In this document: one piece after another, positions 7,678 through 10,891 of the stretch
Numbering within the stretch: the stretch's first letter is position 1
Layout: every line of letters begins with the position of its first letter
Source: a virus
Taxonomy: Duplodnaviria > Heunggongvirae > Uroviricota > Caudoviricetes
Strand: one strand, 5' to 3'
Length of the DNA stretch: 10,891 nt
IMG/VR virus record: IMGVR_UViG_2541047778_000014
Made by a program: the position numbers and the translations under genes
Notes under the pieces: model-generated
Seen by the model: only the letters and a program-made list of their open reading frames with translations
The model's database searches: none
Told to the model about the DNA's origin: nothing

Positions 7678-7736
7678 TGAATTGAACCGCCCCGGGAATC
7701 CTGGAGACTAAACTTCCTGAGAAAGAGGTAAACAGG

Positions 7737-8063
7737 ATGACTAAAAATACTCGTTTTTCCCCCGAAGTCCGTCAACGGGCAGTCCGTATGGTTCTGGAAA
7801 GTCAGAGCGAATATGACTCACAATGGGCGACAATTTGTTCCATTGCTCCAAAGATTGGCTGTACGCCGGAGACTCTGCGTGTCTGGGTTCGCCAGCATGA
7901 GCGGGATACCGGGGGCGGTGATGGAGGGCTCACCACCGCTGAACGTCAGCGTCTGAAAGAGCTGGAACGTGAAAATCGTGAACTGCGCCGCAGTAACGAT
8001 ATCCTTCGCCAGGCTTCCGCTTATTTTGCGAAGGCGGAGTTCGACCGCCTCTGGAAAAAATGA
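7737..8063 (+). CDS. IS629 OrfA (transposase N-terminal HTH/leucine-zipper protein)
   Basis: 108 aa; starts 55 nt inside the left IR; ends in an A6 run (8055..8060) that overlaps the orfB start. Confidence 0.9.
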
Positions 8064-8950
8064 TGCCACTGCTGGATAAGCTGCGTGAGCAGTACGGGGT
8101 CGGACCGCTATGCAGCGAACTGCATATTGCCCCGTCAACGTATTACCACTGTCAGCAACAGCGACATCATCCGGATAAACGCAGTGCCCGTGCGCAGCGC
8201 GATGACTGGCTGAAGAAAGAGATACAGCGCGTATACGATGAAAATCACAAGGTATACGGTGTGCGTAAAGTCTGGCGTCAGTTGTTACGGGAAGGTATCA
8301 GAGTGGCCAGATGCACTGTGGCACGTCTCATGGCGGTTATGGGACTTGCCGGTGTTCTCCGGGGTAAAAAGGTCCGTACGACCATCAGCCGGAAAGCCGT
8401 TGCCGCAGGCGACCGCGTAAACCGTCAGTTCGTGGCAGAACGACCTGACCAGCTGTGGGTGGCTGATTTTACTTACGTCAGCACATGGCGGGGCTTCGTC
8501 TATGTGGCGTTCATCATTGATGTGTTTGCCGGATACATCGTGGGGTGGCGGGTCTCATCGTCCATGGAAACGACATTCGTGCTGGATGCACTGGAGCAGG
8601 CGTTATGGGCCCGTCGACCGTCCGGCACGGTCCATCACAGTGATAAAGGTTCTCAGTATGTATCGCTGGCCTACACACAGCGGCTTAAGGAAGCCGGATT
8701 ACTGGCATCAACAGGAAGTACAGGCGACTCGTATGACAACGCGATGGCGGAGAGCATCAATGGTCTTTACAAAGCGGAGGTAATACACCGTAAGAGCTGG
8801 AAAAACCGTGCAGAAGTGGAACTGGCCACACTCACGTGGGTGGACTGGTATAACAATCGACGATTGCTGGAAAGGCTGGGCCATACTCCTCCGGCAGAAG
8901 CAGAAAAAGCTTATTATGCTTCCATCGGAAACGATGATCTGGCAGCCTGA
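8060..8950 (+). CDS. IS629 OrfB (transposase catalytic DDE domain; normally expressed as an OrfAB fusion by -1 frameshift)
   Basis: 296 aa; in the -1 frame relative to orfA, with ATGA overlap; rve-type integrase catalytic-core residues visible (D in WVADFTYV, D in [10 protein letters not shown] in DNAMAES). Confidence 0.9.
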
Positions 8951-9015
8951 GTTCACAGATAAAACACTCTCCAGGAAACCCGGGGCGGTTCAGGCAACAA
9001 ATACCATCTGTTGAA

Positions 9016-9258
9016 ATGCCGAATCACACATGGTTTTGCGTACTTGATATCGATGGTATGGATACGTTGGTTGACACTCGTCATTACTGCGATACCGCAA
9101 CAGCTACTCCGGCGAAAGCAAAGAAAATGGCTGCTCTGATAGAAAACTGGACTCCACCTGATGGTTGGTGCAATGGGAATGATCGAGATTGGCACGAAAA
9201 AATGAAGGGCTATATCTGCGATTTTTTACGTAAATGCAACGGCTTCAGGGGGATGTGA
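9016..9258 (+). CDS. hypothetical phage protein (80 aa), possibly 5'-truncated by the adjacent IS
   Basis: ORF starts 24 bp after the IS right end with no clear Shine-Dalgarno; the reading frame stays open upstream into the IS, so the native N-terminus may be missing. Stop lies 2 nt before the next gene. Confidence 0.4.
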   Translation: MPNHTWFCVLDIDGMDTLVDTRHYCDTATATPAKAKKMAALIENWTPPDGWCNGNDRDWHEKMKGYICDFLRKCNGFRGM

Positions 9259-9832: not shown

Positions 9833-10116
9833 TGGTCTCCTTCGCGAAATATACGATTATTGACTGGATAGCATTCATTCAGGTTTTGCTCATCTGGTTT
9901 TATATGGCTTACAGGAGTGGACAGTGGATTGTCAGTGTAGCCTGTAGCAATGGATGGCGTTGGTGGAACCGAAAGAATAAAAAAGCGCTGGCCTTGGCTT
10001 CGTTTTACGAAGCATTCAATCTTAACAGTCTTCAGCCTGGTTTTGTCGTTGTAGTCACCACTCAAAGCGGCATGACGATACAAATTCACAAGCCAAAGGA
10101 GGAAGGTCGTGGCTAA
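9829..10116 (+). CDS. hypothetical small membrane protein (95 aa)
   Basis: ATGA overlap with the upstream gene; one strongly hydrophobic segment (IIDWIAFIQVLLIWFYMAY) followed by a basic stretch; operon context supports it over the antisense ORF 9697..10155. Confidence 0.5.
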   Translation: MMVSFAKYTIIDWIAFIQVLLIWFYMAYRSGQWIVSVACSNGWRWWNRKNKKALALASFYEAFNLNSLQPGFVVVVTTQSGMTIQIHKPKEEGRG

Positions 10117-10393
10117 CCTGCAACTTGCCGTTAAAGGTGAATACTTCGATGCCATGATTCGCGGAGAGAAAACGGAAGAGTATCGCCTGTGTAATGACTA
10201 CTGGAATAAGCGAATTATGTTCCGCGAGTATGACCGCCTGATTATCACAAAGGGATATCCGAAGCGCGACGATTCCAGCCGCAGAATTGACGTCCCGTAT
10301 GACGGATATGAAATCAAGACAATCACACATCCGCACTTCGGCGATAAACCGGTAAAGGTGTTCGCTATAAAGGTGAATATCGACAATGAATGA
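10109..10393 (+). CDS. ASCH-like (PUA-fold, DUF3850-type) protein
   Basis: 94 aa; LAVKGEYFDAMIRGEKTEEYRL...REYDRLII resembles the ASCH/DUF3850 pattern (KPEYFEAV..G.KTFE.R...) as recalled; overlaps the upstream gene by 8 nt. Confidence 0.5.
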   Translation: MANLQLAVKGEYFDAMIRGEKTEEYRLCNDYWNKRIMFREYDRLIITKGYPKRDDSSRRIDVPYDGYEIKTITHPHFGDKPVKVFAIKVNIDNE

Positions 10394-10397
10394 TAAT

Positions 10398-10423
10398 CCT
10401 CGCACTCGCGGGGATTTCTTTTA
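10398..10423 (+). terminator. candidate intrinsic terminator after the ASCH-like gene
   Basis: CCUCGC-ACUC-GCGGGG stem-loop (6 bp with one G-U pair) at 10398..10413, followed by the U-rich run TTTCTTTTAT. Confidence 0.45.
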
Positions 10424-10465
10424 TCTGAACTCGCTACGGCGGGTTTTGTTTTATGGAGATGATAA

Positions 10466-10633
10466 ATGCACTTCCGAGTCACAGGTGAATGGAATGGAGA
10501 GCCATTCAACAGAGTTATCGAAGCAGAGAACATCAACGACTGCTATGACCACTGGATGCTGTGGGCGCAGATAGCACATGCAGACGTAACTAATATTCGA
10601 ATTGAAGAACTGAAAGAACACCAAGCCGCCTGA
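10466..10633 (+). CDS. small hypothetical protein (55 aa), not in the supplied ORF track
   Basis: Manual translation: MHFRVTGEWNGEPFNRVIEAENINDCYDHWMLWAQIAHADVTNIRIEELKEHQAA. GGAG Shine-Dalgarno 7 nt upstream; protein-like composition; stop directly followed by an intrinsic terminator. Preferred over the overlapping track ORFs 10386..10574 (+) and 10451..10699 (-). Confidence 0.45.
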   Translation: MHFRVTGEWNGEPFNRVIEAENINDCYDHWMLWAQIAHADVTNIRIEELKEHQAA

Positions 10634-10648
10634 TGGCGGTTTTTTATT
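10625..10648 (+). terminator. intrinsic terminator downstream of the 55-aa ORF
   Basis: GCCGCC-UGAU-GGCGGU stem-loop (10625..10640) followed by TTTTTTATT (10641..10649); the stem includes the ORF stop codon. Confidence 0.6.
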
Positions 10649-10690
10649 GCCTGATTTGCAGGTTCGATTCCCTATTCGGAGATAGCACTC

Positions 10691-10891
10691 ATGCAACACG
10701 AACTACAACCTGATTCACTGGTTGATTTGAAATTCATCATGGCCGATACTGGCTTCGGTAAAACCTTCATCTATGACCGGATTAAGTCCGGCGACCTGCC
10801 AAAAGCCAAAGTTATCCACGGGCGAGCAAGATGGTTATATCGTGACCATTGTGAATTCAAAAATAAGCTCTTAAGCCGCGCCAATGGGTAA
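10691..10891 (+). CDS. AlpA-family HTH protein, probable excisionase (Xis-like)
   Basis: 66 aa; DLKFIMADTGFGKTFIYDRIKSGDLPKAKVIHGRARWLYRDHCEF matches the AlpA/excisionase HTH pattern from recall; GGAG 9 nt upstream; sits at the distal end of the early-left genes where xis-int are expected (int would lie beyond the window). Confidence 0.6.
   Translation: MQHELQPDSLVDLKFIMADTGFGKTFIYDRIKSGDLPKAKVIHGRARWLYRDHCEFKNKLLSRANG

Follow-up and report, generated by a model that had tools for sequence, protein, structure and literature searches.

In this work we describe a small gene and the terminator-like hairpins around it near the 3' end of a 10,891-nucleotide stretch of viral DNA (Caudoviricetes record IMGVR_UViG_2541047778_000014), the whole of which is referred to here as the window. 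The gene is a homologue of orf55 of phage lambda, an open reading frame (ORF) of 55 codons, and together with its hairpins it forms what we call the module, laid out as follows.

10395..10426, plus strand: hairpin 1 with its T-tract (AATCCTCGC-actc-GCGGGGATT, then TCTTTTATCT; stem-loop 10395-10416, 9 pairs)
10427..10454, plus strand: hairpin 2 with its T-tract (GAACTCGC-tacg-GCGGGTTT, then TGTTTTAT; stem-loop 10427-10446, 8 pairs)
10455..10458, plus strand: Shine-Dalgarno sequence GGAG, 7 nt 5' of the ATG, near-invariant among relatives
10466..10633, plus strand: orf55 homologue (lambda lambdap35; phrog_676), ATG start, 55 amino acids, 6.55 kDa, isoelectric point 4.9
10623..10648, plus strand: hairpin 3 with its T-run (AAGCCGCC-tgat-GGCGGTTT, then TTTATT; stem-loop 10623-10642, 8 pairs)

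An earlier sequence-only reading of the window had described an ORF with a GGAG site of its own and a Trp-rich, acidic product, and both are present as described (3 Trp, 10 Asp+Glu against 4 Lys+Arg, charge -6). That reading also had the ORF bracketed by one hairpin on either side; terminator-like hairpins do lie on both sides, but the upstream ones are two in tandem, that at 10427-10446 having been overlooked. Hairpin 1 begins directly after the stop codon of a 94-residue ASCH-domain gene, and hairpin 3 overlaps the end of the ORF such that its 5' arm is formed by the last codons (Ala-Ala) and the TGA stop falls within its loop. RNA folding gives hairpins 1, 2 and 3 energies of -13.7, -11.0 and -13.0 kcal/mol, with z-scores against dinucleotide shuffles of -4.5, -5.0 and -3.5, respectively. 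A terminator scan finds all three as plus-strand hairpin-plus-T-tract sites within 253 nt, where 0.13 would be expected (P(>=3) ~3e-4), given a chance level of 11.1 sites per window on both strands in shuffles.

The ORF is a genuine gene and a homologue of lambda orf55, and orf55 with its three predicted flanking terminators is already present in the literature. Window positions 10395-10653 align by BLASTN at 96.5% identity with lambda 29098-29356 (lambda minus strand), which is the ea8.5/xis interval, and the encoded protein shares 54 of 55 residues with lambda Orf55, the sole change being L32 here for I32 in lambda. A distant BLASTN search of target phage records with positions 10380-10700 as query matched 363 records, and phages phiv205-1 and CUS-3 are 100% identical to this query. 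The protein matches the profile of phrog_676 over positions 1-55 of 55 (E=3.7e-40), a family that PHROGs labels as function unknown; searches of Pfam, NCBIfam and PADLOC with the 55-residue protein gave no match. The earlier statement that the protein has no recognisable family therefore holds for Pfam and NCBIfam and fails for PHROGs and for the lambda annotation lambdap35; the identity with lambda orf55 had escaped that reading. The records of HK140 and phiv205-1 label the ORF as similar to lambdap35, and the lambda-imm21 record annotates the same ribosome-binding site. In lambda, orf55 closes the exo-xis region as its seventh ORF (PMC3824215), and a genome-wide CRISPR interference map of essential lambda genes left it out for want of a protospacer-adjacent motif site (PMC10695390). 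The hairpins have a history of their own: Bloch et al. 2014 predicted the same three in lambda as t3, t4 and t5 (PMC4195576), and hairpins 1, 2 and 3 of the window are essentially identical to these in sequence. Hairpin 1 is also annotated as 'tL4 terminator' in the old HK022 record X51962, and hairpin 3 as a rho-independent terminator in HK140. A literature search on 'tL4' returned nothing relevant, and a 2025 literature match for 'orf55' was set aside as it concerns an unrelated gene of phage PhiKZ.

Purifying selection acts on the 55-residue frame. We assembled 195 loci with a full-length orf55, drawing on collections of viral, genome and metagenome sequences and on look-ups of divergent proteins; the 55-codon ORF is intact in 194 of them, the exception being the 1989 HK022 record. 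The 106 distinct nucleotide versions encode just 50 distinct proteins, and among 52 distinct versions the sites at codon positions 1, 2 and 3 vary in 26, 12 and 49 of the 55 codons, respectively. Pooled ratios of nonsynonymous to synonymous polymorphism (pN/pS) for the competing frames are given below.

orf55 frame: 0.17 (52 versions)
plus-strand frame of the rival ORF 10386-10574: 1.35
other plus-strand frame: 1.94
antisense frame of the ORF 10451-10699: 1.37
antisense frame sharing the wobble position: 0.21

The ratio for the orf55 frame is 0.24 with 106 distinct versions. The rival ORF 10386-10574, which the sequence-only reading had held open as the possible conserved frame, is ruled out by its ratio of 1.35, and the antisense ORF 10451-10699 was rejected on its 1.37. 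The low value in the remaining antisense frame is an expected artefact, because that frame shares its wobble position with orf55; it is not open across the ORF. When the E. coli copies are compared with a Klebsiella-type clade at about 75% protein identity, the nonsynonymous distance (dN) is about 0.19 and the synonymous distance (dS) about 2, hence saturated, for a dN/dS of 0.08-0.10 between clades. The frame singled out earlier thus bears a strong synonymous-site pattern.

Furthermore, the non-coding elements of the module (the hairpins, including that over the stop codon, and the Shine-Dalgarno sequence) are more constrained than the synonymous sites of the gene. Nucleotide diversity (pi) among 110 distinct E. 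coli-type modules was distributed as follows.

third codon positions: 0.063
second codon positions: 0.007
hairpin 2: 0.03
T-tract of hairpin 2, Shine-Dalgarno sequence and spacer: 0.003-0.02 (Shine-Dalgarno 0.02; spacer 0.003)
stop codon, 3' arm and T-run of hairpin 3: 0.0175
wobble sites of the last five codons (5' arm of hairpin 3): 0.007
wobble sites in the rest of the ORF: 0.069

Across 135 distinct module sequences, a terminator-like hairpin lies over the stop codon in 130 and at least one upstream hairpin is present in 123, and in 111 of these 123 the upstream stem ends exactly 19 nt before the ATG. A G/A polymorphism in hairpin 2 leaves the affected pair as G-U or A-U. The slot of hairpin 1 can be filled by replacement hairpins followed by the same T-tract (AACCCGC-cgagt-GCGGGTT, CCGC-ttaat-GCGG and ATCCTCG-cactga-CGAGGAT), and directly 5' of the Shine-Dalgarno sequence we find at least five unrelated hairpin-plus-T-run sequences that differ by lineage. 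Klebsiella-type homologues (75% identity, with a different C-terminus) retain the geometry of the stop-codon hairpin (GCCGCC-CACTGA-GGCGG). A scan of positions 10000-10891 against Rfam at E<=10 returned only sub-threshold chance matches, the best being RsmY with 19.7 bits against a gathering score of 57. What is new relative to the t3-t5, tL4 and HK140 annotations is the lower variability of these hairpins compared with synonymous sites, their non-homologous replacement in some phages, and their location at mosaic junctions.

Orf55 and its flanking hairpins travel together between lambdoid prophages of E. coli, Klebsiella and their relatives, in which both the neighbouring genes and the types of integrase and excisionase differ. 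Homology between phages starts at hairpin 1, after the upstream stop codon, and ends just past the T-tract of hairpin 3, where it gives way to no fewer than six unrelated contexts. On the upstream side we count at least 10 classes of neighbour (including ea8.5, ASCH, DUF551 and NinX-like genes), and the excisionase encoded downstream may be lambda Exc (PF07825), DUF1233, TorI-type or of other kinds. In every intact relative, the leftward early (pL) operon has orf55 at its distal end, with no further ORF between it and the excisionase gene. Its neighbours in the window are the following.

10109..10393, plus strand: ASCH-domain gene, 94 amino acids (phrog_625; RefSeq 'ASCH domain-containing protein'), outside the conserved module
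10691..10891, plus strand: TorI-type excisionase gene, 66 amino acids (phrog_66; RefSeq torI); the window ends at its stop codon

Only past the stop codon of the ASCH gene does the sequence become homologous to lambda and HK022, the lambda match starting at 10395. TorI is the recombination directionality factor of modules of the KplE1/HK620/CUS-3 type, and we used the protein to fetch 80 torI loci (L202-L281), which carry a full orf55 in 45 cases, a C-terminal remnant in 16 and none in 19. Loci that lack orf55 have other DNA and another terminator in its place, with no clean empty site among them. A terminator-like hairpin stands 48-51 nt before the torI ATG in 73 of the 80, with or without orf55, and is followed by the same T-tract and leader. 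It comes in two versions, GCCGCC-tgat-GGCGG (orf55's own) and GCCGCA-tcaa-TGCGG, which differ by a compensatory C-G to A-T change of the loop-closing pair. Orf55 is, in short, a discrete and optional mosaic unit.

In many prophages, moreover, no more than the last 16-44 residues of Orf55, together with the terminator, are fused to unrelated N-termini (among others P0047, P0066, P0069, P0075, P0096 and P0103 (ASCH-Orf55 fusion); loci L204, L213, L240 and L280). These chimeric ORFs indicate frequent recombination breakpoints inside orf55.

The Orf55 family is narrow, and the module is nonetheless very common. A word-indexed search gave 99 clusters, none of them from outside the prophages of E. 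coli, E. albertii or the Klebsiella type and many of them C-terminal-only chimeras. A profile scan of 1.84 billion representative proteins yielded 53 matches, mostly chimeric or truncated, with a handful of relatives at 33-50% identity and no annotated relative among them; a metagenome scan for such 33-50% relatives recovered the main E. coli/Klebsiella clade only. Residues W9, N10, F14, E19, E21, D22, D25 and W33 are kept across the distant relatives and make up a W-N-G beta-turn and, where the helix begins, an E-A-E-D acidic patch. Among 5,426 complete E. coli genomes, 2,645 contain the module (2,180 with coverage of at least 80%), at up to 8 copies per genome. We also encountered orf55 at 98% identity in assemblies labelled Shewanella, Pseudomonas, Streptomyces/Kitasatospora, Bacillus-group, Bradyrhizobium and others (loci L005-L025), on contigs of low coverage, several of about 48.4 kb, with lambda's own protein variant. 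Shewanella, Streptomyces, Bacillus and the like were rejected as hosts, the contigs having the appearance of lambda DNA contamination.

With a probability of roughly three in four, we read the orf55 homologue as a genuine gene for a 55-residue protein that is the last accessory gene of the pL operon, placed just before the excisionase gene behind intrinsic terminators and dependent on antitermination for its expression. Sigma-70-like sites matching at least 9 of 12 positions were reported nowhere near the ORF, and a relaxed scan at 8 of 12 or better found nothing within positions 10395-10465 of the conserved module; the only two weak matches of that scan lie inside the ASCH gene, with poor spacing, upstream of both leading hairpins. 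Two hairpins with their T-tracts, together with the Shine-Dalgarno sequence, take up the 71 nt before the ATG. Since the upstream neighbours vary among phages, a conserved promoter could only lie within the module. In lambda, orf55 has been described within the pL-driven exo-xis region (PMC8614690; PMC3824215). The sequence-only reading had proposed an autonomously regulated, moron-like cassette as opposed to a plain operon member; that proposal finds no promoter-like site at 10395-10465, and it is at odds with the position of orf55 as the last ORF of an antiterminated pL operon in every intact relative.

Mechanistically, we infer that orf55 would be transcribed only by polymerase that has started at pL and been made resistant to termination, by N in lambda-type phages or by put RNA in HK022. 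The three intrinsic terminators would stop unmodified transcription, and orf55 and, above all, the downstream excisionase gene would thereby be kept silent in the lysogen. In KplE1-type modules there is a low, constitutive supply of integrase, and excision ensues once TorI is produced (PMC2951348). An insulator before torI would be understandable, because TorI production would at once trigger excision. That a terminator about 50 nt before torI is kept regardless of orf55 fits such silencing of the excisionase. As for the protein, the small, stable and acidic Orf55 domain, with its W-N-G turn and E-A-E-D patch, may most plausibly bind a host protein early after induction or infection, a weaker suggestion that is modelled on other small phage inhibitors of the same fold. 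A host-takeover or superinfection-exclusion role, which the sequence-only reading had raised for small proteins in such a position, is conceivable as well.

Several points weigh against this account. Termination at hairpins 1-3 is known as prediction or annotation only, and the case for a protein-binding role is made from size, charge and a generic fold alone. The loci were retrieved through peptide patterns, which biases the sample toward intact copies, and they come mostly from close, freely recombining E. coli prophages, so that the diversity comparisons are not independent. In addition, pairwise dN/dS reaches 0.4-0.7 inside the close E. coli group, where substitutions are very few.

Alternative accounts concern first the role of the protein. 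AlphaFold2 with the family alignment predicts, at a mean predicted local distance difference test score (pLDDT) of 90.7, strands at residues 2-9, 12-19 and 41-49 and a helix at 23-37, a beta-beta-alpha-beta fold that agrees with the published model. The latter, of lambda Orf55, has three strands and one helix at a pLDDT of 93 and was accompanied by a speculative comparison with T7 Gp2 (Donaldson 2021, PMC8614690). In our fold comparisons the scores were as follows.

PurS: 6.7
archaeal eL20: 6.4
RNA polymerase epsilon: 4.9
phage p56: 4.7
T7 Gp2: 4.5 and 4.1
AcrIE2: 4.3
Dmd: 4.1

As modelled, the fold is generic and Gp2 is no privileged match within it. A profile search of the PDB with the family alignment gave only noise (E>0.3), and a Foldseek search of BFVD gave no match at E<=1e-3.

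That Orf55 inhibits or modulates host RNA polymerase in the manner of Gp2, by binding to the beta' jaw and to region 1.1 of sigma70 (Donaldson 2021, PMC8614690), appears unlikely. Gp2-family proteins do occur among the weak BFVD matches, at ranks 13, 24 and 32 and with up to 33% identity over 46 columns, and both proteins are acidic. Aligned with hhalign, Orf55 and Gp2 are colinear over 44 columns, with Orf55 R45 falling on the essential Gp2 R58, but the probability of this alignment is 1.7% and 0.7%. It also sets Orf55 N43 against Gp2 R56, although R56 and R58 are both invariant in the alignment of the Gp2 family (PF16857) made here, and R45 itself is kept in the close orf55 subfamily only and lost in more distant relatives. 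Orf55 has no match to Pfam PF16857 at E<=1, and BLASTP produced no alignment, so that on these comparisons membership in that family is not supported. Moreover, a strong inhibitor would be of no obvious use to a temperate phage that relies on host RNA polymerase. A milder form of the idea, in which Orf55 would be a temperate-phage counterpart of Gp2, a gentle early modulator of RNA polymerase present in about half of sequenced E. coli genomes and locked behind tandem terminators until antitermination, strikes us as rather improbable.

A second proposal is that Orf55 contributes to the lambda function that blocks host replication initiation and synchronises the host cell cycle, which has been mapped to the exo-xis region. 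PMC9239242, citing Sergueev 2002, names orf73, ea22, ea8.5 and orf55 as having a suggested role in inhibiting the initiation of host DNA replication, and early transcription from pL would suit such a role. The attribution is to the region, however, and not to orf55 itself, and many lambdoid phages that retain the other exo-xis genes, such as phi24B, have no orf55, which leaves this a doubtful assignment for the gene.

A further possibility is that orf55 also acts in cis, as a leader ORF of an attenuator in which the translating or terminating ribosome hinders hairpin 3 and so couples read-through into the excisionase gene to translation of orf55. The placement of the stop codon within the loop in 130 of 135 distinct modules and in the 75%-identical Klebsiella-type homologues is what such a device might leave behind, as are the almost invariant wobble sites of the last five codons. 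However, a terminator stands at the same spot where orf55 is missing, and is to that extent independent of the ORF, while antitermination by N or put already accounts for read-through. Terminators overlapping stop codons are in any case common in compact genomes, and a mere leader peptide would need neither a selected protein sequence nor a confidently predicted fold, both of which Orf55 has. We regard a cis-acting function as a fairly remote prospect.

The autonomous moron is very unlikely. On this account a promoter dedicated to orf55 would lie past the two leading hairpins and ahead of the ATG, and the gene would be expressed independently of pL, for example as a prophage lysogenic-conversion or exclusion factor. 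Its attraction lies in a unit that is flanked by terminators, has sharp mosaic junctions, is complete, partial or missing at one site in torI modules that are otherwise alike (45/16/19 of 80), and is very widespread (2,645/5,426 genomes). Against it, the interval 10395-10465 holds no -35/-10 match at 8 of 12 or better and its space is taken by hairpins, T-tracts and the Shine-Dalgarno sequence; nor do the variable upstream neighbours leave room for a conserved promoter outside the module, and the lambda region is described as pL-driven.

Finally, an untranslated ORF in a region conserved merely as RNA structure or as a recombination linker between modules, as might be suggested by the common remnants holding only the 3' third of orf55 and the terminator (16/80 torI loci and many chimeric proteins) and by mosaic junctions that coincide with hairpins, is hardly credible given a dN/dS of about 0.09 between clades at saturated synonymous sites, variation of codon positions 1/2/3 in 26/12/49 of 55 codons, ratios above 1 in the other frames save the antisense frame sharing the wobble position, a conserved Shine-Dalgarno sequence and spacing, and a structure model at pLDDT 90.7.

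The preferred reading, a protein gene at the end of an antiterminated operon, applies to the family, and the window copy has since lost its setting. The window carries late and nin genes on its minus strand (terminase, Rha, lysis genes, Q, RusA and NinB) and ea-type genes on its plus strand, with an insertion sequence between them.

7683-8992: complete IS629 (IS3 family), 1,310 bp, with 25-nt terminal inverted repeats and junctions at 7682/7683 and 8992/8993
7737-8063: IS629 orfA
8060-8950: IS629 orfB

IS629 links ninB straight to the ea-gene region. To either side of the element, the window matches the intact prophage in E. coli ATCC 11775 at 99.9% identity, and IS629 stands in place of 8,713 bp; the missing segment holds the helicase/replication genes, cII, cro, the repressor, an N-like gene, erf and anti-RecBCD functions. 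Judged from its gene content, the window prophage is defective, being without pL, pR and the immunity region. Because pL and the antiterminator are lost, and any IS-derived transcription would meet hairpins 1 and 2, the window copy of orf55 is probably silent, which leaves the nature of the module unaffected. Right after IS629 lies an 80-residue ORF (9016-9258; phrog_1239) that is apparently the 3' part of a 99-residue gene; this gene is intact in ATCC 11775 (L201 12564-12863) and in phiv205-1, and IS629 seems to have truncated the window copy. In the related genome of ATCC 11775, dsdC directly adjoins the prophage; in modules of the TorI type the integrase lies at the opposite prophage end.

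Orf55 is among the few lambda genes still without a function, yet it occurs in about half of complete E. coli genomes. The present analysis settles that it is a selected protein gene and not an independent cassette, and that the popular analogy with Gp2 has no sequence support; it leaves current understanding of lambdoid phages unchanged. What remains of interest is that this lambda gene is so widespread and that a terminator slot is conserved before excisionase genes. The slot is a modestly useful side result: a terminator is kept about 50 nt before the excisionase gene whatever precedes it, and mosaic joints fall at terminator T-tracts. It fits a scheme in which excision is gated by antitermination, which would matter most where the integrase is constitutive, as in TorI-type modules.

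Among known systems, the resemblance to T7 Gp2 is that of a small, acidic beta-beta-alpha-beta protein from a phage early region with a weak fold match, but the second essential arginine is missing in Orf55 and other folds match better. Morons, which Hendrix and colleagues reportedly defined as promoter-gene-terminator units in lambdoid phages, share part of the layout: orf55 too is a single small gene with its own terminator directly downstream, and it is patchily present between otherwise conserved neighbours, although loci without it have other DNA and another terminator there in place of a clean empty site. Unlike them, it is without a promoter-like site and sits inside an antiterminated early operon, in the same direction. 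The closest system is lambda orf55 itself (lambdap35, NP_597778; PHROG 676). The window copy differs from it in having lost pL and N through an IS629-associated deletion, in belonging to a P22-like phage (CUS-3/phiv205-1 type) and not to lambda, and in its neighbours: where lambda has ea8.5 upstream and Xis downstream, the window has an ASCH-domain gene and TorI. Both nevertheless share the same Shine-Dalgarno sequence, the same three flanking hairpins and the same slot directly before the excisionase gene.

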